In this document: piece after piece, positions 4,776 through 64,000 of the stretch | Layout: every line of letters starts with the position of its first letter | Numbering within the stretch: position 1 is the first letter of the stretch | DNA from: Oceanispirochaeta sp. | GTDB taxonomy: Bacteria; Spirochaetota; Spirochaetia; DSM-2461 | NCBI GenBank assembly: GCA_963663385.2 | Contig: CAXXXD010000003.1 | Location: 384,001-448,000, forward strand | Direction of reading: 5' to 3' | Length of the DNA stretch: 64,000 nt | Program-made: the position numbers and the translations under genes | Notes under the pieces: model-generated | The model's input: the letters and a program-made list of their open reading frames with translations, nothing else | Databases searched by the model: none | What the model was told of the DNA's origin: nothing

Positions 4776-4848
4776 ACCAAAATAATAGTTTATTATTAGT
4801 AACGGGATTAGTAAGGGAATTAAACCTGTAGCAGAAGGGGAGTTGCAA

Positions 4849-5982: not shown

Positions 5983-6134
5983 TCACTTTTGTAATCTGTG
6001 TTATCAGCCTGTCCTGTGGTATACCGTGGAAATGCTGCAGGATGGGTTTTTTTTTAAGGGTCTTACCGCAATCCTGTAAAGTCCTTGTAACAGCGAGCTG
6101 TATATCTGATGTAAATTTGTCTATAATAGGGATT

Positions 6135-44919: not shown

Positions 44920-48093
<3,174 letters not shown>

Positions 48094-48166: not shown

Positions 48167-49042
48167 ATGGTATATCCTGGCATTGATAAAATCAAGGAAC
48201 AGCTCATTTTTCGCTCACTGGGAGGGCTGGAATCCCGTCAGCGCGTGGGCTGCGGATTCATGCATAAGGATGGGATACGTATTGATGAAAAAGATACCCG
48301 TCTATCCACTTATGCTCTGGTTTATGTTATCCGGGGAGAGGGTGAATATGTGGATGAGGATGGAAACCGGTATCCTCTGAAAGCGGGAAGCCTTTTTCAG
48401 CGGATACCTGAGCGAAATCATTCAACGATTCTTGACCCCGGCAGTCGGTGGGCGGAATGTTTCATTGATCTGGGAGCAGAGCTCTACAGAGCTCTTGTGG
48501 CCATGCGTATTGTGGAACCTGATAAGTATGTTTACTGGCTTCCTCCGGATAAGGGGCTTGAAAAAGAGTTCTATCATTATAAAAGATCTCTCGAAACCGT
48601 AAAGGAGAGGGAACTTTCCCTTTTCGGTCTGGAAATGCTTCAGTTCTGCGCTTCAATCCTTCAACGGGCCAAATCGGAGGCCGGAGACCCTCTCTGGATT
48701 ATGGTGGAAAAGAGCTGCCGGGATTTATCGGGGCGTTGTGCAGAACGGTTTGATCTGAAGGAATACTGCCGTGAGAACGGCTGGGGGTACGAGTCCTTCC
48801 GGAAAGCCTTTGTCAGAAGGATGGGGATCTCCCCCGGTCAGTATCTGATACAGAGGCGGATGGATGAAGCCTGCCGGCTGCTCCGGACAGGAAGGCTTAC
48901 TGTTAAAGAGATAGCTTTGCAGCTTGGCTACCACAGTCCCTATGAGTTTTCGGCTCAATTCCGCCGGATTACCGGATGGTCTCCCAGTGCTTATAAAGGT
49001 GCGGGGCAGACAAAACCGGGTCCGGATACCCCTTTCGGATAA
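48167..49042 (+). CDS. AraC-family regulator (divergent from lacZ)
   Basis: Cupin plus C-terminal VKEIALQLGYHSPYEFSAQFRRITGWSP. Confidence 0.92.
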   Translation: MVYPGIDKIKEQLIFRSLGGLESRQRVGCGFMHKDGIRIDEKDTRLSTYALVYVIRGEGEYVDEDGNRYPLKAGSLFQRIPERNHSTILDPGSRWAECFIDLGAELYRALVAMRIVEPDKYVYWLPPDKGLEKEFYHYKRSLETVKERELSLFGLEMLQFCASILQRAKSEAGDPLWIMVEKSCRDLSGRCAERFDLKEYCRENGWGYESFRKAFVRRMGISPGQYLIQRRMDEACRLLRTGRLTVKEIALQLGYHSPYEFSAQFRRITGWSPSAYKGAGQTKPGPDTPFG

Positions 49043-49067: not shown

Positions 49068-49118
49068 TTTACAAATTAACGATGTCCTATTATCATACAA
49101 TACGACAATAAGAAAATA
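49068..49118 (+). promoter_or_regulatory. Promoter and GntR-type operator of the transaldolase operon
   Basis: TTTACA-17-TATCAT; motif TATTATCATACAATACGACAATAAGAAAATA shared with the gntR and iolB promoters. Confidence 0.75.
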
Positions 49119-49159: not shown

Positions 49160-50236
49160 ATGAGTTTATCAAGCCCACTGAAAAAATCAGTTGATTTATG
49201 CAAAATGGAAGTATGGAACGATTCCTGTTCAGTTGAAGAATTGAACTATGCTATAAGCCACGGCGCTTCCGGTGCGACAACCAACCCCGTAATCGTACTG
49301 AATGTACTAAAACAGGAAATGCACCTCTGGAAAGACAGAATCCTTGAAATCATTAAAGAGATGCCTACCGCATCAGAAGTTGAAATCTCCTGGAAACTTA
49401 TTGAGGAAATGGCAGTTAAAGGCGCTTCCATCCTTAAACCTGTTTTTGATGAAACCAATGGCAAGAAGGGCCGGATCTCCATCCAGACAAATGCTCAGCT
49501 CTACCGCAATGCGGAGGCCATGACAGCTCAGGCTGTAGAATTCAACAAACTGGCCGAGAACATGATGGTTAAGATGCCAACTACCGAAGCGGGTATCAAA
49601 GCTTTCGAAGAAGCAACCTATCATGGCGTTAATATCAATGCTACCGTAAGTTTTACTGTTCCCCAGGCTGTTCAGGTAGCCGAAGCTGTAGAAAGAGGTC
49701 TTAAAAGAAGAGAAGCCGAGGGGAAAGATGTTTCCAATATGACGCCTGTCTGTACAATCATGGTTGGTCGTCTGGATGACTGGCTGAAAGTTGTTGCTGC
49801 CAGGGAAAAAATTGCCGTAACCCCCGGAGTCCTTGACTGGGCCGGTGTGGCAGCTTTCAAGAATGCCTACAGAATTTTCAAAGAGAAAGGCTACAGAACA
49901 AGACTTCTCTCTGCTGCTTACAGAAGTCATCTGCACTGGTCTCAGCTGATTGGTGACGATATTGTTCAGACTATCCCCAGCAAGTGGCAGAAACTGTACA
50001 ACGAAAGTGGTATCGAGCCGGAAGTAACAATTGACAAGCCTGTTGATCCTGCCATTATGGATGAGCTGACAAGACTTTTCCCGGACTTCGTAAGAGCTTA
50101 CGAACCAGATGGTATGACTCCTGCCGAGTTTGATTCCTATGGAGCCACTGCCAGAACCCTCCGTGGATTCCTGGCCGGTTATGCCGAGCTGCTCAGTGTT
50201 GTACGGGATCTGATGGTTCCCAATCCCGACGCATAA
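49160..50236 (+). CDS. Transaldolase-family protein (atypical active site)
   Basis: WNDS, GATTNP, VKMP Schiff-base Lys, INAT, VGRLDD, SAAYR. Confidence 0.9.
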   Translation: MSLSSPLKKSVDLCKMEVWNDSCSVEELNYAISHGASGATTNPVIVLNVLKQEMHLWKDRILEIIKEMPTASEVEISWKLIEEMAVKGASILKPVFDETNGKKGRISIQTNAQLYRNAEAMTAQAVEFNKLAENMMVKMPTTEAGIKAFEEATYHGVNINATVSFTVPQAVQVAEAVERGLKRREAEGKDVSNMTPVCTIMVGRLDDWLKVVAAREKIAVTPGVLDWAGVAAFKNAYRIFKEKGYRTRLLSAAYRSHLHWSQLIGDDIVQTIPSKWQKLYNESGIEPEVTIDKPVDPAIMDELTRLFPDFVRAYEPDGMTPAEFDSYGATARTLRGFLAGYAELLSVVRDLMVPNPDA

Positions 50237-50257
50237 GCTGAAAGGGTGTATAACCGG

Positions 50258-50288
50258 AAAGGGCGTTTTATGGTAAAGGCGCCCTTTT
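50258..50288 (+). terminator. Intercistronic stem-loop after transaldolase
   Basis: AAAGGGCG...CGCCCTTTT. Confidence 0.6.
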
Positions 50289-50349
50289 ATCAATCAGGGT
50301 GTAAGTCTACCCTTGAGAAGAGGCTTGAAAAGTAAATTGAGGAGTTAAA

Positions 50350-51729
50350 ATGTCTGACTATATTACCGGATTGATAAGCCGGGCCCGCAAGGCCCAGGCG
50401 GAAATAGAATTCCTGTCCCAGGAAAAAGTGGATGAGATCTGCGAAAGCATCGCCTGGGCTGCCATTCAGGAACCCTTTGTCACAGAACTGTGCAAACTGG
50501 CCGTGGAAGAAACCCGTATGGGCGACTTCCAGAGCAAATACGGAAAAATGATGAACAAGACCCGCGGTGGCTGGTTCGATATGAAAGGCCAGAAGTCCGC
50601 TGGTGTTATCGAAGAAGACGAAGCGCTGGGACTGATCAAAATCGCCAAGCCCGTAGGTGTTATCGGGGCCATGGTTCCGTGTACCAACTGCGAGGCCACT
50701 CAGGTTCTTAAATCCATGAGCGCCATCAAGGGCCGGAATGCCATTATCCTGGCCCCCCATCCCCGTGCCATCAAAACCAATAAAATGGTGATCGATATGA
50801 TGCGCGGCATTCTGAAAGGGCTTGGGTACCCCGAAGACCTGATCATCCATATGGATGAGGTTACCATGGACAACTCACAGGAGCTGATGAAACAGTGCGA
50901 CCTGATCCTGGCAACAGGAGGCGGCGGTCTTGTGAAAGCGGCTTACTCCAGCGGAACCCCCGCCTACGGAGTTGGAGCAGGTAATGCGGTAACTATTGTA
51001 GACGATACGCAGGACCCCAAGGTTGTGGCAGACAAAATCAAACGGTCCAAAACCTTCGATCTGGCCACCAGCTGTTCCGCCGAGAACTCCTGCCTGTTTC
51101 AGAAAGAGATTTATGAAGACATGTGCGCCGCACTGGAAGCCGAAGGGGGTTACAGGGTTAAGGCGGATGAAAAGGATAAACTCCAGAAAGCCATGTGGCC
51201 CGACGGACATACCCTGAACCGGGACATCGTGGCCCAGCCTGCCGAAAAGATTGCCTCCATTGCCGGAATCGATCTGCCCGAAGGAAAGTGTTTTCTCTTT
51301 GTGGAAGAAACGGGAATCGGCGCGGACTATCCTTTCTCGGGAGAGAAACTGTCTGTTGTCACCACCCTGTACAAATGGGACACCTTCGATCAGGCCGTTC
51401 AGATGGTAAATGATATCACCAACTACTCCGGAGCAGGCCACTCCTGCGGTATTCATACAACAAAGAAAGAGAGAATCCTCCAGCTTTCGGAGAGGGTTCA
51501 TGTATCACGGGTTATGGTTAACCAGCCCCAGTGTCTGGCCAACAGCGGTTCCTGGACCAATGCCATGCCCACCACCCTGACTCTGGGATGCGGTTCCTGG
51601 GGAGGAAATATTGCCAGTGAGAACATCACCTGGAAGCATTTGATCAACACAACCTGGGTTTCTTCTCCCATCGCCAACCGACAGCCTTCGGATGAGGAGT
51701 TATTCAGTGAAAGCGTTAGAAAAGGCTAA
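50350..51729 (+). CDS. CoA-acylating aldehyde dehydrogenase (SauS/EutE/AdhE-ALDH family)
   Basis: KPVGVI...PCTN, ATGG..LVKAAYSSGTPAYGVGAGN, SKTFD.ATSCSAEN (catalytic Cys), FSGEKLS, GHSCGIHT, LGCGSWGGN. Confidence 0.92.
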   Translation: MSDYITGLISRARKAQAEIEFLSQEKVDEICESIAWAAIQEPFVTELCKLAVEETRMGDFQSKYGKMMNKTRGGWFDMKGQKSAGVIEEDEALGLIKIAKPVGVIGAMVPCTNCEATQVLKSMSAIKGRNAIILAPHPRAIKTNKMVIDMMRGILKGLGYPEDLIIHMDEVTMDNSQELMKQCDLILATGGGGLVKAAYSSGTPAYGVGAGNAVTIVDDTQDPKVVADKIKRSKTFDLATSCSAENSCLFQKEIYEDMCAALEAEGGYRVKADEKDKLQKAMWPDGHTLNRDIVAQPAEKIASIAGIDLPEGKCFLFVEETGIGADYPFSGEKLSVVTTLYKWDTFDQAVQMVNDITNYSGAGHSCGIHTTKKERILQLSERVHVSRVMVNQPQCLANSGSWTNAMPTTLTLGCGSWGGNIASENITWKHLINTTWVSSPIANRQPSDEELFSESVRKG

Positions 51730-51730
51730 T

Positions 51731-53341
51731 ATGAAAAAACGTTCCAGAGGCGGGGACTCAGTCCCGGAAGAAGAGAAAAGGGAAATCCCCAAAGCTCACA
51801 GGGAAGCGGTCTCCCATCTGGACAGGAGAAAAGCCACCATGCTGGCCGGCGGAGGCGAGTCCCGCCAGGCTCAGCAGAGGGCCAAGGGCAAGAAGACGGC
51901 CCGGGAGAGAATCCATTTTCTTACCGATGAAGGCAGTTTTGTTGAAAACCAGCCCTACATTACCACCCGGAGCGATGACTTCGGCATGGATAAGAAGAAG
52001 TTTGCCGGAGACGGTGTTATTGCCGGAAGCGCTCTTCTGGACGGTCGTCAGATCTGGCTGACCTCCCAGGACTTCACCGTACTGGGCGGGTCACTGGGCG
52101 AGCAGCATGCCGCCAAGATCGCCGGGGCGCAGATGAATGCCCTGAAAACAGGCAAGCCCTTTGTGCAGATCAACGATTCCGGCGGAGCCCGCATTCAGGA
52201 AGGGGTCATGTCCCTTGAAGGGTACGGCAGTATCTTCCGGGCCAACACGCTGGCCTCGGGTGTGATTCCCCAGATCTCCCTGATTATGGGTCCCTGTGCG
52301 GGAGGAGCCGCGTACTCGCCGGCTTTGACTGACTTTGTTTTTATGGTCGACAAGACCAGCCAGATGTATATAACCGGTCCCGACGTGATCAAAGCTGTGA
52401 CCGGAGAGAATGTGACCGGCGAAGGTCTGGGCGGGGCAGTAGCCCATAACAGCAAAAGCGGTAATGCCCATTTCCGCTGCGCCTCCGAAGAAGAGTGCCT
52501 GACCACTCTTAAAAGGCTGCTGTCCTACCTGCCTTCCTCCAACAGGGAAGCGCCTCCGCGGATTGAGTGTACGGACGATCCGAACAGGGATACGGGAGAG
52601 ATCCTCCATATCCTTCCGGATAAGGCGAACAAGCCCTATGATATAAGGGAAGTGATTGATCTGATCTTTGATCAGGAGAGCTTTCTGGAGGTGCATAAAG
52701 AGTTTGCCACCAGCATGGTCGTAGGATTTGCCCGCCTGGCCGGCCGGACGGTCGGTGTATACGGTAATCAGCCCAGGGTGTTTGCGGGATCCCTGGATAA
52801 GGACTCCTCGGACAAGGCGGCCCGGTTTATCCGCTTCTGCGATGCCTTCGGTATCCCCGTGATTTCCCTGGTGGATGTTCCGGGGTATATGCCGGGTACG
52901 GTTCAGGAATTCGGCGGTATTATCCGCCACGGAGCCAAGCTGCTGTACGCGGTCGCCGAGGCTACGGTTCCTAAAATTGCCCTTGTCCTGCGGAAAGCCT
53001 ACGGCGGCGCCTATATCGGTATGGCCTCAAAGGCTCTTGGTTATGACAGGGTGCTGGCCCTTCCCACGGCGGAGATTGCCGTAATGGGAGCTGCCGGTGC
53101 GGCGAATATTATTTTCCGGAACGATATCAACGCCGCCAGGGACCCCGATCTTATCCGTGAGATCAAGATCCACGAGTACCAGGAGAAGTTTATGAACCCC
53201 TTTGCGGCGGCTTCCCAGGGTATTGTGGACGATGTTATCGCACCGGAAGCCATCCGGAAGGAACTGATCCGGTCTGTAGAGATGATGGCGGATAAGATGG
53301 AAGATCTGCCTAGAAAGAAACACGGGAATATTCCCCTTTAG
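51731..53341 (+). CDS. Acyl-CoA carboxylase beta / decarboxylase alpha carboxyltransferase subunit (PccB/MmdA family)
   Basis: GK.TARERI, QDFTVLGGSLGE, DSGGARIQEG, GPCAGGAAYSP, VDVPGYMPG, RKAYGGAY, KKHGNIPL. Confidence 0.93.
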   Translation: MKKRSRGGDSVPEEEKREIPKAHREAVSHLDRRKATMLAGGGESRQAQQRAKGKKTARERIHFLTDEGSFVENQPYITTRSDDFGMDKKKFAGDGVIAGSALLDGRQIWLTSQDFTVLGGSLGEQHAAKIAGAQMNALKTGKPFVQINDSGGARIQEGVMSLEGYGSIFRANTLASGVIPQISLIMGPCAGGAAYSPALTDFVFMVDKTSQMYITGPDVIKAVTGENVTGEGLGGAVAHNSKSGNAHFRCASEEECLTTLKRLLSYLPSSNREAPPRIECTDDPNRDTGEILHILPDKANKPYDIREVIDLIFDQESFLEVHKEFATSMVVGFARLAGRTVGVYGNQPRVFAGSLDKDSSDKAARFIRFCDAFGIPVISLVDVPGYMPGTVQEFGGIIRHGAKLLYAVAEATVPKIALVLRKAYGGAYIGMASKALGYDRVLALPTAEIAVMGAAGAANIIFRNDINAARDPDLIREIKIHEYQEKFMNPFAAASQGIVDDVIAPEAIRKELIRSVEMMADKMEDLPRKKHGNIPL

Positions 53342-53370
53342 TGTTTGACTTATGATAAGGAAGAGGTCGC

Positions 53371-53529
53371 ATGATGAAAAGATTATTTGGTAGAAAAAAA
53401 CAGGAAGCCTTAAAGGCTCGGGAGGTTAAAGCTCCTGTAGATTATACTCCCGGTGTGTACAGCGATGCCATGATCTGGGCTGCGAGCAAGCTGAATCAGT
53501 TGCAGCTGCAGTCGAATCCCGGCTTCTGA
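53371..53529 (+). CDS. 52-aa small protein downstream of carboxyltransferase (not in ORF track)
   Basis: SD AAGGAAGAGG; MMKRLFGRKKQEALKAREVKAPVDYTPGVYSDAMIWAASKLNQLQLQSNPGF; lies before the operon terminator. Confidence 0.6.
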   Translation: MMKRLFGRKKQEALKAREVKAPVDYTPGVYSDAMIWAASKLNQLQLQSNPGF

Positions 53530-53564
53530 CTCATAAATACTATTTAAAAAATGTTCGGTTTTCA

Positions 53565-53617
53565 CCGGTATCAGCCCCAACTGCAGAGAGATCCTTCCGG
53601 GCTGGTACCGGTTTTTT
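53565..53617 (+). terminator. Terminator of the transaldolase operon
   Basis: ACCGGTATCAGCCC...GGGCTGGTACCGGT followed by T-run. Confidence 0.7.
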
Positions 53618-53714
53618 ATGTGTTTTACCAGTATACGCCGGATCAGAAGTTAAAACAGGGTCTGAATGAAGAAGCTCAGGGTTCATCATTCAGACTCAGT
53701 TTTTGATGGCCGTG

Positions 53715-54425
53715 TCACTTGTTGATCTGCAGTCTGTTCTTGATATTTTCAATATGGGAACTGAAGGTATCCACCGAGTTGGATACTTCGCCTGTTCCGA
53801 TAGTATCGATTATCTGTTGATGCTCGCTGACAATCAGGGCCGGGTCGTTGTAATCGCTCTGGGACTGGTCAATCTCTTCGAACATAAAAGACTTAAGGGT
53901 TTTATAGATAGAGTAGAAGAGGGTATTCCCTGTGCTTTTCACAATGATATTGTGAAAATTATAATCCGCCTCAATCATGTTTTCCCGCTGCCCCGCGTCC
54001 AGGCTCATCTTCATATGGTCCACCTGTTTCTGCAGTTCTTTTATTATACCGGCTACTTTATCAGGATCTTCGTTCTGCAGATGGGTGAGGGTGATAATAC
54101 TCCAAAGCTCAATGGCCCCTCTTGTTTCGATCAGTTCCTGCTGTTCCTCTTTACCCAGAAGGATGGACCAGGAAAGGGCTTCCGCGGAGATATTGGCTCT
54201 GTCCGAGAGAAATGTACCCTTGGCCGCCTTGGATTCCAGCACGCCAAGGTAGTTAAAAATTTTAATGGCCTCCCGAATGGAGGAACGGCCGATACCGAAC
54301 CGCTCTGCCAGCTCATTTTCTGTCGGGATTTTATCTCCCGGTTTATATTTTCCGGAGGCTATCAGATCTTTGATATGCTCCATTACCTGTTCCACTACCG
54401 TTTTCTGTTTTATCTTCTGAACCAT
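53715..54425 (-). CDS. FadR/GntR-family regulator
   Basis: PGDKIPTENELAERFGIGRSSIREAI; FCD domain DYNFH..I..GN, SEH. Confidence 0.93.
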   Translation of the reverse strand: MVQKIKQKTVVEQVMEHIKDLIASGKYKPGDKIPTENELAERFGIGRSSIREAIKIFNYLGVLESKAAKGTFLSDRANISAEALSWSILLGKEEQQELIETRGAIELWSIITLTHLQNEDPDKVAGIIKELQKQVDHMKMSLDAGQRENMIEADYNFHNIIVKSTGNTLFYSIYKTLKSFMFEEIDQSQSDYNDPALIVSEHQQIIDTIGTGEVSNSVDTFSSHIENIKNRLQINK

Positions 54426-54437
54426 TTTTTATGCTCC

Positions 54438-54472
54438 TATTGTATGATAATATAACATTAATACAAATTCAA
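54438..54472 (-). promoter_or_regulatory. gntR promoter with putative autoregulatory operator
   Basis: Minus strand TTGAAT-17-TATCAT; 54438-54452 reverse-complements to TATTATCATACAATA, identical to 49088-49102. Confidence 0.75.
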
Positions 54473-54560: not shown

Positions 54561-54776
54561 GCGCAAACGTTTGATATTTAAGTGATTTTTTTATCGATAT
54601 TTATTTAATGATTTTTTAAAGGAATATAATATTCAAATTGTAATGTCTGATAATATGTAAATAGGCTAAGTTGTTTTAATATAATGAATAAAAATGAAAA
54701 AATAAAATATATCAGAAAAAACTTGACAGAAAATCAAACTAGGAGTGATAATGATTAAGTATCGGAAACGTTTGCG
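54561..54776 (+). promoter_or_regulatory. Promoter and two LacI-type operators of the inositol uptake operon
   Basis: CAAACGTTTG at 54564-54573; TTGACA at 54723-54728 with GATAAT at 54747-54752; CGGAAACGTTTGCG at 54763-54776. Confidence 0.7.
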
Positions 54777-54853
54777 TAAATGTAATGTATTCCGTAAAAA
54801 AAAAGAACCGGCAGGGGAATGCCGGTATATGCCGAGAGGCAGGAGGAGAATTT

Positions 54854-55792
54854 ATGAGAAAGCTTTTAGTAGCGCTGATGATGATGGCTCTGTTGACAGG
54901 GGCTGTATTCGCAAATGGACAGCAGGAAGATGAGGGTTATAAAGTAGGTTATGTATGTAACAACTTTAATGATACCTTTCAGACTTATGTAATGGATGCG
55001 GCAGAAGCCTACTTCAATAATGTAGCTGATGTGGAAATCGTTCTTCAGGACTCCGTTGAGGATGTTATTCGTCAGCAGGACCTTGTTAATACACTGATTG
55101 CACAGAAAGTTGATGCACTGATTGTTGTGCCTGTTGATACAAGCGCTATGGAACCCATTGTAAAAGCAGCTGACGAAGCAGGAATTCCCCTTTGCTTCGT
55201 AAACAGAAACCCCTATGCAGGAAAATCCCTTCCTGAAAATGTTTTCTACGTAGGTTCTCAGGAAATCATCGCCGGACAGCAGCAGATGGAATACATGGGA
55301 GAACTCATGGGCGGAAAAGGCGGTGTCGGTATCCTGATGGGTAAACTGGACAACGAAGGCGCTCTGAAAAGAACAGAAGGAAACGAAGCTGTTATTGCAG
55401 ATAAGTTTCCCGGCATTAAGATTCTTGCAAAAGAGACCGGTAACTGGCAGAGAGACCAGGGCATGACTCTGACAGAAAACTGGCTGACCGCTTACGGTTC
55501 CGATCTGAATGGAATCCTGGCTAACAACGATGAAATGGCACTTGGTGCTGTAGAAGCTCTGAAAGCTGCCGGAAGAGAAGATATCTTCGTAATGGGTGTT
55601 GATGCCATTCCCGATGCAAAAGAAGCTGTCGGAAACGGATCTCTGGCTGCTACTGTACTTCAGGATGCTGTTGGACAGGGAGAAGGCGGAGCAAAAGTTA
55701 TCCACAGTGTGCTTCAGGGAAAAACTCCCGAGCCGATTACCTGGGTACCCTTTGTACTTATTACACCGGAAAACCTGGCTGATTTTCAGTAA
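54854..55792 (+). CDS. Sugar (probably inositol) ABC substrate-binding protein, RbsB family
   Basis: Leader VFANGQQE; VDALIVVPVD, FVNR, NWQR, ANNDEMALGA, GVDA; iol context. Confidence 0.9.
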   Translation: MRKLLVALMMMALLTGAVFANGQQEDEGYKVGYVCNNFNDTFQTYVMDAAEAYFNNVADVEIVLQDSVEDVIRQQDLVNTLIAQKVDALIVVPVDTSAMEPIVKAADEAGIPLCFVNRNPYAGKSLPENVFYVGSQEIIAGQQQMEYMGELMGGKGGVGILMGKLDNEGALKRTEGNEAVIADKFPGIKILAKETGNWQRDQGMTLTENWLTAYGSDLNGILANNDEMALGAVEALKAAGREDIFVMGVDAIPDAKEAVGNGSLAATVLQDAVGQGEGGAKVIHSVLQGKTPEPITWVPFVLITPENLADFQ

Positions 55793-55803
55793 TTGAATAG
55801 CCG

Positions 55804-55835
55804 AGGGGAAAAGCCGGAGGTTTTTCCCCTTTTTT
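55804..55835 (+). terminator. Stem-loop after SBP gene
   Basis: AGGGGAAAA...TTTTCCCCT plus T-run. Confidence 0.6.
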
Positions 55836-55847
55836 ATGGAGGGATTT

Positions 55848-57365
55848 ATGGCAGAGGAAAAATATATCCTGGAAATGACGGATATTGTAAAGACCTTTCC
55901 CGGCGTACAGGCACTCAAGGGTGTTCAGCTGAAGGTCAAACCGGGTGAGATCCATGCTCTGATGGGGGAGAATGGCGCCGGTAAATCTACACTTATGAAC
56001 TGTCTGGCAGGAGTTCATGGACAAACTTCAGGAACCATTTTATATGATGGTAAAGTAAGAGAAAATTATAATACAATTCAGGCTCTTGAAATGGGTATCT
56101 CTATGATACACCAGGAATTGAGTCCTGTTCTTCACAGACCGATCATGGAAAACATCTGGTTAGGCAGAGAACCTTTAAACAAATTCGGTCTTGTTGATCA
56201 CCAGAAAATGTATGAGATGAGCGTGGAAGTTCTGAAAGAGATCGATCTTGATGTCGATCCCAGAACAGAGATGGTAAATCTGACTGTAGCAAAAATGCAG
56301 ATGATAGAAATAGCCAAAGCTGTTTCTTTTGATTCCAAACTGATTATTATGGATGAACCCACATCTGCCCTGGCTGACAAAGAGATAAATCAGCTTTTTA
56401 CCATTATGCGGAAGCTGAAAGAAAGCGGTAAAAGCATTATATATATCTCTCATAAACTGGATGAGGTTTATGAGATTACTGATCGTATTTCCGTTTTTCG
56501 GGACGGTATTTATATCGGAACGGAGGATACTGACAAGCTGTCAGAGGATCAGCTCATTAAGATGATGGTAGGACGGGAAGTCAATGAACTCTTTCCCAAG
56601 GAACCCTGTCCTATCGGCGATGTAAAGATGGAAGTAAGGGGTCTGACCCACAGCAGGCATTTCAGGGATGTGTCCTTTACAGTCAGGAAAGGCGAGATCC
56701 TGGGGGTCGCCGGTTTGATTGGAGCGGGCCGAACGGAAGTTATTGAAACAATTTTCGGAATTCGGGAAAAAGTCAGCGGTGAAGTATTGATCGACGGGAA
56801 ACCCGTTGAAATCAACTCTCCCAGGGATGCTATTGCCAATCATATGGCTCTATTGACAGAAGACCGCCGTCATTCGGGGATCTTCCCCATGCTGTCGGTC
56901 CGCTTGAATATGGCCATTACCAACTTTCCGAAATTCCTGAATAAATTCGGACTGATCCGGGACAGGGATGTAAAGAAAGAGTGTGATGAATATGTTAAAA
57001 AAATCCAGGTGAAAACACCCAGTCTGCAGCAGCGGGTAGAGAATCTATCCGGTGGAAATCAGCAGAAAGTACTGGTTTCCCGCTGGTTGATGACCAATCC
57101 GGATATCCTTTTTCTGGATGAACCGACACGTGGTATCGATGTAGGAGCAAAATCAGAGATCCATCGTCTGATAACCAGGTTGGCCGGAGAGGGAAAATCT
57201 ATTGTCATGGTTTCTTCCGAACTACCGGAAGTAATGGGGATGAGTGACCGCATTATGATAATGCATGAAGGGAAAGTAACCGGTATCGTTGATAACCGGG
57301 ACGACCTCACTCAAGAGGAATTAATGACCTATGCTACTGGAAAAGCTGGGAAGAAGGGGGCGTAA
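55848..57365 (+). CDS. Sugar ABC ATP-binding protein (RbsA/MglA type)
   Basis: GENGAGKSTL, MDEPTSAL, LSGGNQQKV, DEPTRGIDVGAK. Confidence 0.95.
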   Translation: MAEEKYILEMTDIVKTFPGVQALKGVQLKVKPGEIHALMGENGAGKSTLMNCLAGVHGQTSGTILYDGKVRENYNTIQALEMGISMIHQELSPVLHRPIMENIWLGREPLNKFGLVDHQKMYEMSVEVLKEIDLDVDPRTEMVNLTVAKMQMIEIAKAVSFDSKLIIMDEPTSALADKEINQLFTIMRKLKESGKSIIYISHKLDEVYEITDRISVFRDGIYIGTEDTDKLSEDQLIKMMVGREVNELFPKEPCPIGDVKMEVRGLTHSRHFRDVSFTVRKGEILGVAGLIGAGRTEVIETIFGIREKVSGEVLIDGKPVEINSPRDAIANHMALLTEDRRHSGIFPMLSVRLNMAITNFPKFLNKFGLIRDRDVKKECDEYVKKIQVKTPSLQQRVENLSGGNQQKVLVSRWLMTNPDILFLDEPTRGIDVGAKSEIHRLITRLAGEGKSIVMVSSELPEVMGMSDRIMIMHEGKVTGIVDNRDDLTQEELMTYATGKAGKKGA

Positions 57366-57368
57366 ATT

Positions 57369-58376
57369 ATGTCTGCAGCAGAAAATATTTTAAAATTAAA
57401 GAAAACAGGGTCCAAAGAGATCCTGCAGAAATACGGTATTGTATTTGTTCTTATTCTGATGGTAATCGGAATAAGTGTCCTGGAACCGGCCTTCCTGAGC
57501 AGTTCCAATATCTTTAATGTTCTGACACAGTCCGCCATATTCGGGATTATGGCATTGGGACTGACATTTGTTATTATCTCCAAGGGAATTGACCTGTCTG
57601 TCGGTTCTATTCTGGCTTTTGCCGGTGTTGTCGCAGCCAGTCTGGCTCAGACGGCTGAAGCTACCGGAAAATACTATCCCAACCTGGCTGAAATGCCTGT
57701 TCTGGTTCCCATTCTGGCAGCTCTGGGTGTAGGTGCGGCCTGTGGTGCGGTTACGGGTATCCTTATCGCTAAAACCAATATCCCCGCTTTTATCTCTTCT
57801 TTAGGTATGATGACTGTGGCGAGAGGTTTTGCCCTGATTTACTCGGATGGTAAACCTGTCAGTACCCTGATTCCATCCATGACACGTCTCGGCGGCAAAC
57901 TGTGGGGCTTCCTTCCTATTCCCGTACTGATCTATTTTGTCATGATTATTATCAGTTCCGTCCTGCTGAATAAAACAAGATTCGGTAAGAGCGTTTATGC
58001 GGTCGGCGGTAATATCAAGGCTGCCGAGGTATCCGGTGTTAATGTAAGCAAAACCCTGATTGCCATCTATTCATTCTGTGGATTGCTGGCCGGTCTGGCA
58101 GCAATCGTATTTGCCGGCCGTGTCGGTTCTGTTCATCCCGGTGCTGCCTTCGGATATGAATTGACTGCCATTGCAGCAACCACAATCGGTGGAACAAGCC
58201 ATTCAGGCGGTATCGGAACAATCTGGGGCGCTTTTGTAGGTGCCATGGTACTGGCTGTACTCAGAAACGGACTGACTCTTCTTGGTGTTGATGCCTACTG
58301 GCAGCAGGTAACCGAAGGTGTCATCATCGTTGTTGCTGTTATCATCGATATGCGTAAAAACGCTAAAAAAGACTGA
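57369..58376 (+). CDS. Sugar ABC permease (RbsC type)
   Basis: GIDLSVGS, YAVGGN..AA.VSG, YELTAIAA..IGGTS. Confidence 0.95.
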   Translation: MSAAENILKLKKTGSKEILQKYGIVFVLILMVIGISVLEPAFLSSSNIFNVLTQSAIFGIMALGLTFVIISKGIDLSVGSILAFAGVVAASLAQTAEATGKYYPNLAEMPVLVPILAALGVGAACGAVTGILIAKTNIPAFISSLGMMTVARGFALIYSDGKPVSTLIPSMTRLGGKLWGFLPIPVLIYFVMIIISSVLLNKTRFGKSVYAVGGNIKAAEVSGVNVSKTLIAIYSFCGLLAGLAAIVFAGRVGSVHPGAAFGYELTAIAATTIGGTSHSGGIGTIWGAFVGAMVLAVLRNGLTLLGVDAYWQQVTEGVIIVVAVIIDMRKNAKKD

Positions 58377-58397: not shown

Positions 58398-59411
58398 ATG
58401 AAAAAAATTAAAATCGGTTCAGTCGGTCTGGGACGTCTGGGCCTGCAGCATGCGGAAAATATAGCCACAAGGGTCATGAATGCCGAACTGACGGCCCTGT
58501 GTGATTTGAATGAATCCCTTTTAAATGAAACCGCGGACAGACTGGGAGTAACCCACCGCTGTAAAAGTTTTGAGGAATTGATTGCTATTGAAGAGCTGGA
58601 TGCCATATCCATTGTCTCTCCTTCGCATCTTCATACAGGTCAGATTTCAGCTGCCCTGGCAGCAGGGAAGCATGTGTTTTCGGAAAAACCTCTTGGTGTA
58701 ACTGTAGAGGAGTGCAAAGAAGCGGAAAAGGCTGTGGAAAAGTACTCCGATAAGGTTTTTATGCTGGGCTTTATGCGCCGCTTTGATCCTTCCTATGTGT
58801 ACGCTCATGAAAAAGTGATGGCCGGAGAGATCGGTAAGCCGGTTCTTTTCCGCTCCTACAGTCAGGACCCCGAAAAATTTATTGACGGAGCTATTGCTTT
58901 TGCCGGTCATAGCGGCGGGCAGTTTCTGGATATGGCTGTGCATGATATTGATTTGGCTCGCTGGTTTCTCCAGTCAGAGCCGGAAAGCGTTACAGCCATG
59001 GGAGGCTGCTATGCGCATCCTGAATTCGCTGAATATAAGGACGGGGATAATGTTTCCTGTTTGATGAAGTTCAGGAATGATGCTATGGTTTTTCTGTTTG
59101 CAGGCCGGACGGCTCCCCATGGTTACAATGTGGAGACTGAAATCATTGGAACAAAAGGAATCCTGAGAATCGCTTCTGTTCCGCAGAAAAATCTGGTGGA
59201 AGTCCTTGATAACAGTGGTGTGCGCCGGGAATGCAGCGAAAACTTTCTGGAACGATTTGAAAGTTCCTATGTAAATGAAATGCAGGAATTCGTGGACTGT
59301 ATCCTGGAAGGCCGGAAACCGAAAGTAACCGTATATGACGGGACCAAAGTATCCGAAATCGCCTACAGGTGCAAAGAGTCTTTCGAGACCGGCAATCAAT
59401 TGAGGTTTTAA
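58398..59411 (+). CDS. iolG: Inositol 2-dehydrogenase (Gfo/Idh/MocA)
   Basis: GLGRLG..H, EKPL, GFMRRFDP, DMAVHDID; iol context. Confidence 0.85.
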   Translation: MKKIKIGSVGLGRLGLQHAENIATRVMNAELTALCDLNESLLNETADRLGVTHRCKSFEELIAIEELDAISIVSPSHLHTGQISAALAAGKHVFSEKPLGVTVEECKEAEKAVEKYSDKVFMLGFMRRFDPSYVYAHEKVMAGEIGKPVLFRSYSQDPEKFIDGAIAFAGHSGGQFLDMAVHDIDLARWFLQSEPESVTAMGGCYAHPEFAEYKDGDNVSCLMKFRNDAMVFLFAGRTAPHGYNVETEIIGTKGILRIASVPQKNLVEVLDNSGVRRECSENFLERFESSYVNEMQEFVDCILEGRKPKVTVYDGTKVSEIAYRCKESFETGNQLRF

Positions 59412-60436
59412 TGAAAAATACCCAGGTTACCATAAAGGATATTGCGGAAATCGCCGGAGTCAGCTTTTCGACGGTTTCCCGTTCCCTGAACGACAGTTCC
59501 GGAGTTTCGGAAAAAACAAAAAAGAGGATTTGTCAGATTGCGGAAGACCTGGGTTTTGAATTTAATGCCGGCGCGAGGAGTATGATTACGAGCCGTGCCG
59601 GAACCGTGGGGATTGTTCTGCCCGAACAATATACCCTTGTAAATGTTAATGTGTACCACGGGATGCTGATGAACAGCCTCCGAACCTACCTGGAAAAAGC
59701 GGATGTGGATCTGATTGTCACCTATCAGAATAACCATTTCAGCAAGCAGAATAATATAAAACGGCTTATAACACGGAAAAAGGTCGATGGTCTGATTCTT
59801 CTGGATGAGTACATCTCCCCGGAATCTCTGGACTTCATGAAAAACCGGGATTTTCCTTTTGTCTGTACCCATTACCCGCCCGGACCTGCAATCAAAGATC
59901 AGGATGTGATTTTTACGGATCATTATATCGGCGGTCAGCTTGTGGCAGAACATCTGCTTGAAAGGGGACGTACATCATTCCTTCTGCTGGCAATGGCAGT
60001 GGAGCATGACGAGTTTCTCTTGAGAGAGCGGGGATTTATAGAAACCGTTGAGAGGGCCGGTCACAAGGTAAAACGGATTACCAGTGATTCAACATTTGAT
60101 TCGGCCAAAGAGGTAATGAAAGAGCATCTGGCTGCTGCCAGATCCAGTGATGCCCTTTTCGCCATTAATGACCTGATGGCGCTGGGCGCTATGCGGACTT
60201 TGAAGGATAAGGGATTTGACATACCCGACGATATCGCTATCGTCGGGTATGATGACAGTGAATTCGCCCGTTACAGTAACCCCTCCCTTACCTCTATTCA
60301 TCAGCCTCGAGAAGAGCTGGCGCATATTTCCTGCGACCGTCTATTTCTTCAGATGGAAAAGAAGAGGCAGGACGAGGAGTTTATTAAAAAGAGAATCAGC
60401 ATACAGCCGGTTCTTCTGGAGCGGGAGTCGACATAA
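59411..60436 (+). CDS. LacI-family regulator
   Basis: VTIKDIAEIAGVSFSTVSRSLN; NDLMALG, IVGYDD, LTSIHQP; ATG 59411 overlaps iolG stop. Confidence 0.94.
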   Translation: MKNTQVTIKDIAEIAGVSFSTVSRSLNDSSGVSEKTKKRICQIAEDLGFEFNAGARSMITSRAGTVGIVLPEQYTLVNVNVYHGMLMNSLRTYLEKADVDLIVTYQNNHFSKQNNIKRLITRKKVDGLILLDEYISPESLDFMKNRDFPFVCTHYPPGPAIKDQDVIFTDHYIGGQLVAEHLLERGRTSFLLLAMAVEHDEFLLRERGFIETVERAGHKVKRITSDSTFDSAKEVMKEHLAAARSSDALFAINDLMALGAMRTLKDKGFDIPDDIAIVGYDDSEFARYSNPSLTSIHQPREELAHISCDRLFLQMEKKRQDEEFIKKRISIQPVLLEREST

Positions 60437-60451
60437 ATATGAAAATAAAGC

Positions 60452-60507
60452 TTCACAATATTTAATACTGCTGATACTATATCAGACAATAATACAATAA
60501 GAAGATA
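60452..60507 (+). promoter_or_regulatory. iolBDE promoter with GntR-type operator
   Basis: TTCACA-17-TACTAT, then TATCAGACAATAATACAATAAGAAGATA (24/28 identical to 49091-49118). Confidence 0.75.
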
Positions 60508-60523: not shown

Positions 60524-61339
60524 TTGGTAGTTCGAAATGAAAAAAACATGAAATCCGGGTACACGGCTATAACCGAAGAGAACGGGAAACATTCCGAAAT
60601 GCTTCTGGATTTTGGACTTCTCAATCTGAAAGCTGGTGAGGAATGGACCTGTGAAGAACAAAAAGAACGAGCCTGGCTGCTGATCAGGGGCAACGCCGTA
60701 TTTGAATGGGAAGGAAAATCCGAAGAAGTGACAAGAAGATCCTGCTTTGATGAAAATCCTTCTGTATTACATGTACCCCAGGGTGTCAAAGTGAAAATCA
60801 GAGCGGTTGAGGACACTGAATTCGGAGTTGAAAAGAAGTTAAACGACAAGGATTTTGATTGTAAGCTCTATAAACCGGAGGATGTCCGCTGCGACATATT
60901 CGGCGGAGGGATTATGCATGATGCCGCCAAGAGGACCGTTCGTACCGTATTTGACGGAGAGATAGCTCCCTATTCCAATATGGTAATGGGAGAAGTGATC
61001 AATCACCCCGGGCGCTGGTCCAGCTACCCTCCACACGATCATCCCCAGCCGGAAATCTATCACTACAGACATTTTCCCGAGCAGGGATTTGGTGTCTCCC
61101 TTATAGATGAAGAACCTTACTATGTGAAAAACGGGGATACAACACTGATTTTACCCGATAGAACACACTCTCAGGTGGCTGGTGCCGGATATGCCATGTA
61201 TTACATCTGGATGATTCCTCATCTGGAAAACGACCGTTGGCTGCCTACCACACGGTACTTTCGGAAGGAGCATGAATGGCTCAAGGAACCGGATGTCAAA
61301 ATCTGGCCAGAATTAAAATACGGGGAGGAACAGAAATAA
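60524..61339 (+). CDS. iolB: 5-deoxy-glucuronate isomerase
   Basis: [33 protein letters not shown] start after AAGGAGG. Confidence 0.88.
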
Positions 61340-63273
61340 TGGGAACAATCAGAATGACAGTCGCTCAGGCGCTGGTAAAATTCCTGAATCAGCAGTATCT
61401 GGAATTTGACGGGAAGGAACATAAATTTGTAGAAGGTATTTTTACCATATTCGGACATGGAAATGTAGTTGGTCTGGGACAGGCTCTGGAAGAAGACCCC
61501 GGGACACTCAAAGTCCATCAGGGAAGAAACGAACAGGGAATGGCTGCGGCTGCCATGGGTTTTGCCAAACAGAATCACAGGCGTAAAATTTATGCGGCTA
61601 CTTCTTCTGTCGGACCCGGCGCTGCCAATATGGTGACTGCGGCCGCAACCGCTACCGCCAACAGGATCCCTGTGCTTCTGCTGCCCGGAGATACCTATGC
61701 TACAAGACAGCCGGACCCGGTTCTCCAGCAGATGGAGCAGTTTCATGATCTGACTCTGACTACGAACGATGCTTTCCGTCCGGTCAGTAAATTCTGGGAC
61801 AGGGTAAACCGTCCCGAACAGCTCATGTCTGCCATGATCAATGCCATGCGGACCCTTACCGATCCGGCCAATACCGGTGCTGTAACGGTTTGTCTTCCCC
61901 AGGATGTTCAGGGGGAAGCCTATGACTACCCCGAATATTTCTTTCAGAAACGGGTTCACCGACTGGAAAGAACAGCGCCGACGGATGCGATGGTGGCAGA
62001 AGCGGCAGCCATGATTAAATCAAAGAAAAAGCCCATGCTGATCTGCGGCGGTGGGGTTCGTTATTCCGAAGCAGGACAGGAACTGATAAAATTCGCCGAG
62101 GAGTTCAATATCCCCTATGCGGAAACCCAGGCCGGTAAGAGTGCTACCCTGCATTCCCATCCCCTGAATATCGGCGGTGTCGGTACAACAGGTTGTCTGG
62201 CAGCCAATACACTGGGACAGGAGACAGATCTTGTAATAGGTGTAGGAACCAGGTATACCGATTTTACCACAGCGTCAAAATGGCTGTATCAGAATCCCGA
62301 TGTGGATTTTATCAATATAAATGTTGCCGGTTTCGACTCCTATAAACTGGATGCCGTGCGCGTCACATCGGATGCAAAAATGGCCCTTGCCGCTCTAAGG
62401 GAAGCTCTTGTGAAAGAGGGATATAAATCTGCCTATACCACTGAGATCAAGGCCGCCAAGGATGAATGGGACAGGGAACTGAACCGGCTTTTCAATCTGA
62501 AATATACTGGATCCGGATTTCAGCCGGAAATCAGGGACGGTCTGAAAGAAAAACTGGAAGAGTACAGCAAATTTCTGGGATCTGAACTGACCCAGACCAG
62601 GGTACTGGGAATCCTTGACGAAGTTCTGGGTGAAAACTCTATCTGTGTTGGAGCCGCCGGTTCTCTTCCGGGAGACCTGCAGAGGGTTTACCGGGCAAAA
62701 AGCGAACGGTCCTATCATATGGAATACGGTTACTCCTGTATGGGGTATGAAATCGCCGCGGCTCTGGGGGCCAAGCTGGCGGAGCCGGAACGTGAAGTCT
62801 ATGCCCATCTGGGTGACGGTTCCTTTATGATGCTCCACTCCGAACTGGCGACATCTATACAGGAGGGAATGAAGATCAACTGTCTGGTATTTGACAATGT
62901 TGAATTCGGCTGTATCAACAACCTGCAGATGGAAAGGGGACAGGGCAGCTTCGGTACTGAATTCCGTCACAGGGATCCCGCATCCGGTAAACTGGCAGGT
63001 CCTCTGGTTTCTGTGGATTTTGCCAAAATCGGTGAAGGATACGGCTGTAAAACCTATACGGTCAAGAACGAAGAAGAGCTTAAAGCTGCCATTGAGGATG
63101 CAAAAAAACAGACTGTATCCACAGTGATTGATATAAAGGTTCTACCTAAAACAATGACCGGCGGATACAAGGGATTCTGGCGCTGCGGGCAGGCGGAAGT
63201 TGCTGAAAGCAAATCCGTTGTTGAAAAGACGGAAGAGATGAAAAACGAGCTGAAAAGAGCCCGACAGTACTGA
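61339..63273 (+). CDS. iolD: 3D-(3,5/4)-trihydroxycyclohexane-1,2-dione acylhydrolase (ThDP)
   Basis: [50 protein letters not shown]. Confidence 0.96.
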
Positions 63274-63344: not shown

Positions 63345-64000
63345 ATGAACAAAGAGAATGTTAAATTGGCCATGGCTCCCATTGGTTGGACCAATGATGA
63401 TATGCCTGATCTGGGGGCTGAAAACACTTTTGAACAGTGTGTGAGCGAGATGGCTCTGGCGGGGTATACCGGTTCGGAAGTAGGGAACAAGTATCCGAAA
63501 GATCCGGCGGTTCTGAAAGAGTATCTGGATATCCGCGGGATCCAGATCTGTAACCAGTGGTTTAGTTCCTTTCTGGCTTCCCAGCCTTTTGAACAGGTCG
63601 AAAAGGATTTCAGAAATCAGTTGATGTTCCTGAAAGCCATGGGGGCGGACGTTATCGGTCCTTCCGAGCAGACCCGGTCCTGCCAGGGGCAGCTGGATGT
63701 TCCCATTTTTTCTGGAAAGGCGGAATTCAATACGGAAGAATTCAAAAGATTGACAGACGGCATGAACAAGCTGGGGCATATTGCCAGAGAAGAAGGTCTG
63801 ACCCTGGCTTATCATCACCACATGGGTACTGCCGTACAGACCATGGAAGAAACGGAACGTTTCCTCAATGATACGGATCCGGATAAGGTTACCCTTCTGT
63901 ATGACTGCGGTCACTTCTCTTTTGCCGGAGAGGATCCTGTTAAAGCCCTTGAAAAATTCATCAGCCGGGTTGGTCATGTACACCTTAAGGATATGCGTAA
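63345..64000 (+). CDS. iolE: myo-Inosose-2 dehydratase (partial, runs off window; not in ORF track)
   Basis: Hand translation MNKENVKLAMAPIGWTNDDMPDLGAENTFEQCVSEMALAGYTGSEVGNKYP...YHHHMGT...YDCGH...HVHLKD. Confidence 0.95.
   Translation, partial: MNKENVKLAMAPIGWTNDDMPDLGAENTFEQCVSEMALAGYTGSEVGNKYPKDPAVLKEYLDIRGIQICNQWFSSFLASQPFEQVEKDFRNQLMFLKAMGADVIGPSEQTRSCQGQLDVPIFSGKAEFNTEEFKRLTDGMNKLGHIAREEGLTLAYHHHMGTAVQTMEETERFLNDTDPDKVTLLYDCGHFSFAGEDPVKALEKFISRVGHVHLKDMR

Follow-up and report, generated by a model that had tools for sequence, protein, structure and literature searches.

In the inositol pathway described for Bacillus subtilis and Salmonella, breakdown proceeds through IolG, IolE, IolD, IolB, IolC, IolJ and IolA. 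IolG, IolE, IolD and IolB together make 5-dehydro-2-deoxy-D-gluconate (DKG) from myo-inositol, and the lower steps rely on a kinase, a dedicated aldolase of the class II or DUF2090 type and an IolA of the MMSDH type, with cleavage of the C3-C4 bond and formation of a triose-level unit, malonate semialdehyde (MSA) and acetyl-CoA. A kinase-free logic is known from sulfoquinovose breakdown, where the sulfofructose transaldolase (SftT/BmSF-TAL) takes an unphosphorylated ketose with an anionic tail, transfers its dihydroxyacetone unit to glyceraldehyde-3-phosphate (GAP) and frees an anionic aldehyde. Sodium-pumping decarboxylases acting on methylmalonyl-CoA or malonate are exemplified by MmdABCDE of Veillonella and the Mad system of Malonomonas. 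Non-canonical handling of MSA (3-oxopropionate), as proposed here, is found in two inositol-fermenting anaerobes, going by the available portions of the reports: Anaerostipes retains both IolC and IolJ and relies on a CoA transferase (PMC8355322), and in Dysosmobacter IolJ is missing and a class II aldolase has been proposed (PMC13311982). Here we describe a putative operon at positions 49160-53529 of a 64-kb stretch of DNA from an Oceanispirochaeta genome, which encodes an enzyme of the transaldolase/fructose-6-phosphate aldolase (TAL/FSA) family, hereafter TAL, a CoA-acylating aldehyde dehydrogenase (ALDH), a carboxyltransferase (CT) and a 52-amino-acid (52-aa) open reading frame (ORF), and which probably supplies the lower steps of inositol breakdown that its own genome otherwise lacks.

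The window, meaning the whole 64-kb stretch, corresponds to positions 384001-448000 of contig C3 of genome G000 (5.3 Mb in four contigs, 98% complete), and its nearest protein and locus matches are to Oceanispirochaeta-like spirochaetes. Coordinates below refer to the window unless a contig (C2, C3) or a comparison locus (L) is named, and all functional readings are based on sequence, gene context and one predicted structure. The four genes lie on the plus strand where a sequence-only reading of this DNA had placed them: TAL (49160-50236; PF00923, 147.6 bits), ALDH (50350-51729; top family SauS, NF047625, 520.9 bits against a cut-off of 600), CT (51692-53341; PF01039, 607.7 bits), whose start overlaps the ALDH stop and which has an alternative ATG at 51731, and the 52-aa ORF (53371-53529), with the Shine-Dalgarno-like GGAAGAGG 6 nt upstream. 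The adjoining sugar ABC-iolG-lacI-iolBDE locus that had been described was also present, and a regulator gene lying in between, gntR, had been missed.

The four upper steps of the canonical pathway are encoded here too. IolG, IolD and IolE of this genome passed curated cut-offs, with iolG (inositol 2-dehydrogenase) at 58398-59411 on the plus strand (TIGR04380, 374.4 bits vs 355), iolD at 61276-63273 on the plus strand (TIGR04377, 941.7 bits vs 715) and iolE at 63345-64000 on the plus strand, running past the window edge (416 bits vs 290 for the complete protein). The divergent iolB-type isomerase gene (60524-61339, plus strand) is a point on the other side, as its product falls below its NCBIfam cut-off (TIGR04378, 92.4 bits vs 205) and is backed by Pfam alone (PF04962, KduI/IolB, 177.5 bits). 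The lower steps were not recovered: whole-genome profile searches gave a best score for IolC of 117.8 bits against a cut-off of 300, a best score for IolA/MMSDH (TIGR01722) of 82.2 bits against 448.5, and no match to the DUF2090-type aldolase (PF09863). The best PfkB genes of the genome are a probable KdgK, next to Eda (KDPG aldolase), and a gene next to DhaK, and the single class II aldolase gene (PF01116) lies at C3:1238386, about 800 kb from the operon. The lack of iolC, iolJ and iolA that had been noticed in the window thus extends to the whole 98%-complete genome, bar this one distant class II aldolase, and since IolC, a dedicated IolJ and IolA are all missing, inositol breakdown would halt at DKG without new enzymes. 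This gap, together with the co-regulation and the synteny with iol genes set out below, makes it probable that the operon belongs to the inositol pathway. Compared with the canonical route, the same C3-C4 bond would be broken and a triose-level unit, MSA and acetyl-CoA are likewise expected, whereas the kinase, the dedicated aldolase and the MMSDH-type IolA would be replaced by a class I TAL-fold enzyme, an ALDH of the EutE/SauS type and a biotin-dependent CT.

Co-regulation is suggested by an element whose copies form the highest-ranking family of direct repeats within the 12-kb region. One copy (49091-49118) lies before TAL, starting with the -10 hexamer of a promoter-like site (TTTACA-17-TATCAT, 49068-49118, plus strand); another, 86% identical to it over 28 nt, lies directly upstream of iolB (60480-60507, plus strand). 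A third copy (54425-54458, minus strand, in gene orientation; 82% over 34 nt) precedes gntR, where the element again starts with the -10 hexamer of a putative promoter, and in all three promoters it occupies the -10/+1 region. Its core 12-mer, TATCAKACAATA, occurs in the window three times exactly and twice with one mismatch (one of the latter at 54641-54652), compared with 0.61 occurrences expected, and a total of five was reached in none of 100 shuffles; across the 5.3-Mb genome there are six exact matches and none of the reversed control. The element is kept upstream of TAL in four loci of related metagenome-assembled genomes (MAGs; L013, L022, L026 and L029), upstream of gntR in related MAG loci and upstream of iolB in L022, L026 and L029. 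The operator-like motif common to the operon and iolB, which the sequence-only reading had pointed out, was therefore borne out by the repeat search, the shuffles and the relatives.

The gntR gene (53715-54425, minus strand; PF00392, 64 bits; PF07729, 52.8 bits) encodes a GntR/FCD (FadR-type) regulator, is convergent on the operon and is kept next to it at 84-85% identity in L013 and L029. In L014, L015 and L024 the element takes the palindromic form TTGTCAGACAA, which matches the T.GT-N3-AC.A pattern that we take to be typical of FadR-type GntR operators. The GntR/FCD protein is a candidate repressor; acting at a single operator common to all three, it probably governs its own gene, iolBDE and the TAL operon. 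A kinase hidden elsewhere in such a regulon was considered and rejected, as the other exact genomic copies of TATCAKACAATA adjoin no kinase of interest: one is near a second GntR/FCD gene with LarA-like and altronate-dehydratase genes, and others lie close to a gene of the FapA type or to one for an SNF-family transporter. A PfkB gene 4.5 kb from one copy adjoins KDPG aldolase and looks like KdgK.

Relatives of TAL were sought by scanning one genome per species across about 185,000 reference genomes. A relative is encoded in 411 genomes; inspection was confined to the best 80 loci, which show 54-89% identity. Within these, iolB or iolD was found in 55 of 80 loci, and in 34 of the 45 that span at least 15 kb; gene by gene, iolD and iolB each occurred in 46 loci and iolE and iolG each in 36. 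Twelve of the 25 loci lacking iolB and iolD are contigs shorter than 9 kb, and another two (L013 and L029) end just before iolB. TAL usually lies within the iol operon itself, typically in the order lacI-iolB-TAL-iolD-iolG-iolE, as in Anaerolineae; other orders are lacI-iolB-TAL-iolD-iolA in a Terriglobia MAG, lacI-iolB-iolD-TAL-iolA-iolE-iolG in a Chloroflexia MAG and ABC-iolG-...-iolD-iolE-TAL-iolB-iolA in Clostridia (L037, L039). In these operons every canonical step is present except the kinase and the aldolase, and TAL is the sole recurrent extra gene. The conserved linkage of TAL homologues to iol genes, spanning Chloroflexota, Clostridia, Acidobacteriota, Verrucomicrobiota and Spirochaetota, agrees with the sequence-only reading. 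As a separate observation, a membrane H+-pyrophosphatase gene (L077:5600-7915) lies directly upstream of the lacI-iolB-TAL operon of an Anaerolineaceae MAG; it fits a pyrophosphate-based glycolysis, in which a route forming fructose-6-phosphate would be cheaper.

The linkage also bears on the idea that the operon lies outside inositol catabolism, with TAL serving as the pentose-phosphate transaldolase or the operon serving a sulfonate or another sugar acid. Seven full-length TAL loci (L038, L044, L052, L066, L067, L070 and L091) have none of iolB, iolD, iolE and iolG nearby, the ALDH is nearest to SauS, and an AraC-family regulator gene precedes the operon (48167-49042, plus strand; HTH_18, 71 bits, and AraC_binding), in a position next to TAL that relatives do not keep. 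In addition, both PF00923 genes of the genome are Gln-type, so that it has no Glu-type transaldolase. Set against this are the synteny of TAL with iol genes across phyla, the operator common to iolB and kept in relatives, the loss of the catalytic Glu in every clade member, an inositol pathway that would lead nowhere in this genome without the operon, and the lack of any substrate for a carboxyltransferase in sulfonate metabolism. A role outside inositol breakdown is thus very unlikely.

We next considered whether TAL could act on DKG. The protein fell below the cut-off in all ten of its NCBIfam matches, the best being NF002881 (123 bits vs 367), and scored 49.2 bits against 245.95 with the FSA model TIGR00875. 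Its predicted structure (AlphaFold2, pLDDT 94.2) nevertheless has the TAL/FSA (beta/alpha)8 fold, and the model superposes with TM scores of 0.80-0.83 on 3r5e, 3clm and 7oey, comprising Corynebacterium glutamicum and Neisseria gonorrhoeae transaldolases with about 20-23% identity. Active-site residues were assigned by alignment with TalB and FsaA of Escherichia coli and, in a second alignment, by comparing 26 members of the clade. The Schiff-base lysine K138 (TalB K132) is invariant in all 26, as are D21, N42 and T162, which align with TalB Asp17, Asn35 and Thr156, and both arginines of the distal anion (phosphate) site, R204 and R255 (TalB R181 and R228); the TalB S226 position is Ala. According to the titles of PDB entries, E96, F178, D17, N35, T156, S176 and R181 are studied positions of the transaldolase active site. 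TAL therefore appears fit for Schiff-base chemistry on a 2-ketose with an anionic tail, and DKG would suit it, since DKG has a free CH2OH-CO head and a carboxylate where fructose-6-phosphate carries its phosphate. The bond that TAL would have to cut in DKG is the bond cut by IolJ.

Two substitutions weigh against a simple transaldolase assignment. The catalytic Glu of TalB (E96) is replaced by Gln109 (motif GRISIQTN), and the position of TalB Phe178, which is Tyr in FSA, is occupied by Met201 (motif TIMVGR), in 26 of 26 members each. Because every curated transaldolase and FSA cut-off was failed and Gln109 and Met201 are invariant, TAL seems to represent a distinct Gln/Met subtype of the TAL/FSA superfamily and not a canonical transaldolase. 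With this pair, and with no acid/base residue that could be named, neither transfer nor cleavage can be asserted. The transfer to GAP put forward in the sequence-only reading is thus in keeping with the fold, the lysine and both arginines, but is not established over aldol cleavage. The comparison with SF-TAL (PDB 8bc3) is one of logic more than of sequence: that enzyme has about 220 residues and the inositol-clade TAL about 358, their similarity amounts to 36 bits over 70 residues, and the latter has its closest fold matches among the transaldolases of actinobacteria and Neisseria and, unlike SF-TAL, has Gln for the catalytic Glu. The only other TAL/FSA-family gene of the genome, at C3:270531-271319 (L116:4481-5521), likewise encodes a Gln-type protein, in which the first of the distal arginines is missing; its cluster holds genes for a TRAP binding protein, a LacI regulator, the TAL-like protein, an SMP-30/gluconolactonase, a fucose-isomerase-like protein and an HpcH/HpaI aldolase.

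The same residues raise the possibility that TAL is an FSA-type aldolase, splitting DKG into free dihydroxyacetone and MSA, with the former phosphorylated by DhaK or reduced to glycerol and the ALDH and CT acting as proposed for the transfer route. Fructose-6-phosphate aldolases are characterised by a Gln where transaldolases have Glu, and Gln109 aligns with the Gln of FsaA, a 220-residue member of the same superfamily compared with the 358 of TAL; the aldolase-like engineered transaldolase variants titled in the PDB are E96Q/F178Y and E60Q/F132Y. The Gln and the catalytic Tyr of FsaA are, we assume, Q59 and Y131. In TAL, by contrast, the acid/base Tyr is Met in all 26 clade members.

Evidence on the fate of the three-carbon unit came from a co-occurrence profile of 50 TAL genomes, namely those with the longer of the 80 loci. 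IolC above its cut-off is missing from 41 of them. The dihydroxyacetone kinase Dak1 is present in 20 of the 50 and missing from 29 of the 41 that lack IolC, among them G012, a close relative in which the TAL locus is part of a 5.6-Mb contig that is recorded as a chromosome. Since 29 of the 41 IolC-less TAL genomes also lack Dak1, transfer to an acceptor such as GAP is favoured over release of free dihydroxyacetone; in addition, no Dak gene lies within any annotated TAL cluster. This argument is weakened by the incompleteness of MAGs and by other routes for dihydroxyacetone, and the spirochaete itself has Dak1 (C3:362267-363199), adjoining a PfkB kinase and a Zn-ADH, with no exact copy of the operator motif near it. 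Taking both sides together, we regard free aldol cleavage by TAL as rather unlikely, and transfer of the three-carbon unit as the preferred reading.

The same profile tempers the claim, made in the sequence-only reading, that TAL stands in place of IolC and IolJ. It is supported by the 41 of 50 genomes without IolC, but not by the other nine, which have it. In four of these (L016, L050, L053 and L065) the gene sits between iolB and iolD in the order TAL-iolB-iolC-iolD-iolA, with neither known aldolase type in the cluster. Furthermore, the absences are soft because most of the compared genomes are MAGs. A clean split of the TAL tree by IolC status was looked for and rejected, as the IolC-containing members fall mostly in a Caldilineae clade but are interleaved with IolC-less ones in the midpoint-rooted FastTree phylogeny.

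This coexistence of TAL with IolC is the main support for the alternative that the substrate is phosphorylated, that is, that TAL replaces IolJ only and is a class I aldolase for phosphorylated DKG, with an unrecognised kinase where IolC is missing. The Caldilineae-type clusters just described fit it, and their genomes have no DUF2090 protein and carry their class II aldolases on other contigs. It is contradicted by the 41 TAL genomes without IolC and by the fact that no kinase family recurs in the IolC-less clusters, even in L037, L060 and L062, which hold every other step. The best PfkB matches of the spirochaete are the KdgK and the DhaK-adjacent gene mentioned above, G335 has IolJ besides TAL, and we know of no TAL/FSA-family enzyme that accepts a 1-phosphorylated ketose. 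Replacement of the aldolase alone is, in our judgement, improbable, and an unphosphorylated substrate is preferred.

In a sample of 400 other Spirochaetota genomes, 15 encode IolD; nine of these have IolC, three have TAL and two (G335 and G343) have both. The cluster of G335 reads IolJ-IolC-IolB-TAL-IolA-ABC-IolD-IolE, which also speaks against strict replacement; the TAL encoded there carries the Gln/Met pair as well. TAL can thus coexist with the canonical steps, an arrangement compatible with a parallel route, for example one giving fructose-6-phosphate directly. A further five of the 15 (G300, G397, G225, G118 and G414) have neither IolC above its cut-off nor TAL, which means that other endings of the pathway exist. 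Two of these five, both complete genomes, showed distinctive clusters. In L130 (G397:C1:3936200-3956100), iolG-iolB-iolD and a 491-aa IolE-domain protein are followed by phosphoglycerate kinase, GAPDH-like, malic-enzyme-like and LarA-like genes, which may constitute a third ending of the inositol pathway. In L129 (G300:C1:2513500-2533400), iolB-iolD-iolG is followed by a 334-aa protein without a Pfam match and a HAD hydrolase.

The second step of the proposed route differs among the TAL loci. Classical IolA adjoins TAL in 29 of the 80 loci, with 540-590 bits against the cut-off of 448.5 where scanned, and the spirochaete lineage has an acylating dehydrogenase of the EutE/AdhE type where most TAL clusters have IolA. 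The order TAL-ALDH-CT is syntenic in four related MAGs, with the ALDH 75-86% and the CT 77-92% identical. Relatives of the ALDH with 57-68% identity were also found on six metagenome contigs: ALDH-CT pairs occur in L123 and L128 and a TAL-ALDH pair in L125, with identities of 54-71%, while in L127 the ALDH relative is followed by a B12-binding regulator. On the remaining two (L124:1616-2956 and L126:707-2041; 57-63% identity), the ALDH relative is followed by a class-III aminotransferase, with an amidohydrolase also near the pair in L124. That aminotransferase family presumably includes beta-alanine (MSA-producing) and taurine aminotransferases, and the two contigs look like a beta-alanine/pyrimidine or a taurine route feeding the same ALDH family. 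Replacement of IolA by a SauS-like ALDH and a CT thus appears to be confined to this spirochaete lineage and a few metagenome contigs.

The best-scoring curated family of the ALDH, matched over its full length, is the sulfoacetaldehyde enzyme SauS, which argues against an MSA substrate. Sulfoacetaldehyde is the sulfonate analogue of MSA. The score, however, is under the SauS cut-off, and the neighbours of the ALDH are TAL, CT and iol genes, with no sulfoacetate or taurine context. In four Anaerolineae loci (L035, L077, L083 and L089) the iol cluster closes with an ALDH of 50-51% identity. The L077 copy, from an Anaerolineaceae MAG, scores 577 bits to SauS. Next after it comes a gene for a TauE/SafE-family anion exporter (L077:17473-18192), which likewise counts against an MSA substrate; the exported anion could be malonate or a sulfonate. 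In the spirochaete, the product of the ALDH would be malonyl-CoA, and not sulfoacetyl-CoA or acetyl-CoA, because its partner CT needs a carboxylated acyl-CoA.

The CT, an enzyme of the MmdA/PccB type, matches PF01039 over profile positions 1-493 of 493 and aligns to 1vrg with an E value of 5e-187. It is the sole free-standing carboxyltransferase of the genome, and among solved structures it comes closest to the beta subunits of propionyl-CoA carboxylases and to the 12S transcarboxylase. It belongs to the same family as the corresponding components of the Mmd and Mad decarboxylases and of the 12S/5S/1.3S transcarboxylase (PDB 1on3), and the small ORF that follows it resembles the epsilon subunits of the decarboxylases in position. 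Unlike in those systems, the CT gene here lies apart from those for the carrier, gamma/delta and beta subunits, and its proposed substrate comes from an ALDH in a sugar-alcohol pathway.

Several observations count against its assignment to a malonyl-CoA decarboxylase. The score to mmdA (TIGR01117) is 746.2 bits against a cut-off of 998.8, and no gene for a carrier, gamma/delta or pump subunit adjoins CT. Acyl-CoA specificity could not be read from the residue after GGAY, which was tried and is Ile in the CT and in propionyl-CoA and acetyl-CoA carboxylases alike. A free-standing biotin carrier was not found in the genome. It does encode, on another contig than CT, a 602-aa OadA with HMGL-like, PYC_OADA and biotin domains, adjoining a single OadB pump subunit. 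A 12S-like CT and OadA together would have the domain content of a transcarboxylase, and with OadB that of a sodium-pumping decarboxylase. OadB was found in eight of ten genomes checked, and since it also occurs in relatives without this CT, its presence is permissive and not diagnostic. Two further biotin-related frames were noted. A 1837-aa open frame (C2:553872-560537; L094, L097) combines a carboxyltransferase and a biotinyl domain in one spirochaete ORF and appears to be a eukaryote-style multidomain acyl-CoA carboxylase; a 1128-aa biotin ORF was taken, by size alone, as pyruvate carboxylase.

Homologues of the 52-aa ORF, with the motif PGVYSDA..W, follow CT in three of the four relatives (L013, L022 and L026); none was found in L029, the closest relative, and family searches with the ORF gave no match. 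Complexes predicted for the 52-aa protein with CT scored 0.02, 0.31 and 0.22 against a mark of 0.32. It is possible that the ORF encodes an accessory subunit.

These data also permit another division of labour, in which the ALDH alone does the job of IolA, converting MSA to acetyl-CoA and CO2, or makes malonyl-CoA for lipids, and the CT serves elsewhere, for example in methylmalonyl-CoA/propionyl-CoA metabolism or in anaplerotic transcarboxylation. The four Anaerolineae clusters with a SauS-like ALDH have no CT next to it, the closest solved relatives of the CT, named above, fit such a role, and OadB occurs with or without this CT. Conversely, the genes for ALDH and CT overlap and are found paired again in the four MAGs and on two metagenome contigs, and the only free-standing CT of the genome sits in the operator-controlled operon. 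In both Anaerolineae genomes examined, which carry SauS-like ALDH iol clusters, a full biotin decarboxylase operon of the order CT-OADgamma-BCCP-OADbeta lies elsewhere, and the CT of the Anaerolineaceae one is 52% identical to that of the window. An ALDH acting without the CT is, on this evidence, unlikely. The ALDH-CT branch suggested by the sequence-only reading is consequently supported by the recurring adjacency (four MAGs and three of six contigs) and by a pump beta subunit and a biotin protein encoded elsewhere, but it is held back by a CT without a carrier of its own.

We propose the following scheme. IolG, IolE, IolD and IolB give DKG; TAL would form a Schiff base with the C5 keto group of unphosphorylated DKG, break the C3-C4 bond and free MSA, and the three-carbon unit would most likely go to GAP to yield fructose-6-phosphate. 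The SauS-like ALDH would then oxidise MSA to malonyl-CoA, and the CT would shift the free carboxyl of malonyl-CoA to a biotin protein, leaving acetyl-CoA. The carboxyl acceptor would most likely be the biotin domain of the OadA encoded elsewhere, after which OadB could free CO2 while pumping sodium, or OadA could hand the carboxyl to pyruvate. That the operon completes the inositol pathway is probable; for the composite of transfer to GAP, a malonyl-CoA intermediate and biotin-dependent transcarboxylation or decarboxylation through OadA/OadB, the chances appear evenly balanced; and a kinase-free, energy-conserving fermentation with the CT docking on OadA/OadB, and a TAL ending widespread in at least five phyla, is a more tentative and somewhat doubtful proposition.

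The proposed route varies a known pathway and draws on enzyme superfamilies already described. Literature searches, with most subscription journals outside their coverage, returned no paper linking a transaldolase to inositol catabolism and none linking a malonyl-CoA-forming dehydrogenase and a carboxyltransferase to inositol; the word transaldolase does not occur in the available portions of the Anaerostipes and Dysosmobacter reports (PMC8355322 and PMC13311982). Inositol, including that derived from phytate, is a major carbon source in soil, sediment and gut, and genome-based predictions of its use lean on IolC, IolJ and IolA as markers. If the TAL ending is real, hundreds of species (411 of about 185,000 reference genomes) would wrongly be scored as lacking a complete pathway. 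Following the example of sulfoquinovose breakdown, this ending would be the second in nature in which an enzyme of the transaldolase family takes over from a kinase and an aldolase, and it would define a new catalytic subtype with Gln/Met in place of Glu/Phe or Gln/Tyr. The ALDH-CT branch would add an MSA dehydrogenase of the EutE/SauS type that forms malonyl-CoA, and would show fermenters harvesting a decarboxylation that aerobes discard through IolA.

The remaining features of the region complete the picture of the locus. A sugar ABC transporter (binding protein, ATPase and permease; 54785-58376, plus strand), presumed to serve inositol uptake, is kept together with iolG in relatives, and iolG is followed by a LacI-family regulator gene (59369-60436, plus strand), assigned by family matches. 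Past the window edge iolE is completed and a second iolG follows, after which the genes are unrelated. Between the convergent TAL operon and gntR, a hairpin with 22-nt arms that are 86% complementary (53652-53703) is a probable bidirectional terminator. It is overlapped by a 51-aa ORF (53551-53706) that follows the 52-aa ORF; this ORF matches no family and probably does not represent a gene. On the other side of the operon, directly upstream of the AraC gene and on the opposite strand, lies a LacZ-type beta-galactosidase gene (44920-48075, minus strand; 890 bits vs the NF052611 cut-off of 999). Unrelated to the inositol genes, a GntR regulator, a glycerate kinase and a HAD hydrolase are encoded in a row at 4146-6782, and beyond 6782 follow a GH114-like gene, an acetyl-xylan esterase gene and a sugar ABC transporter with an AraC regulator.

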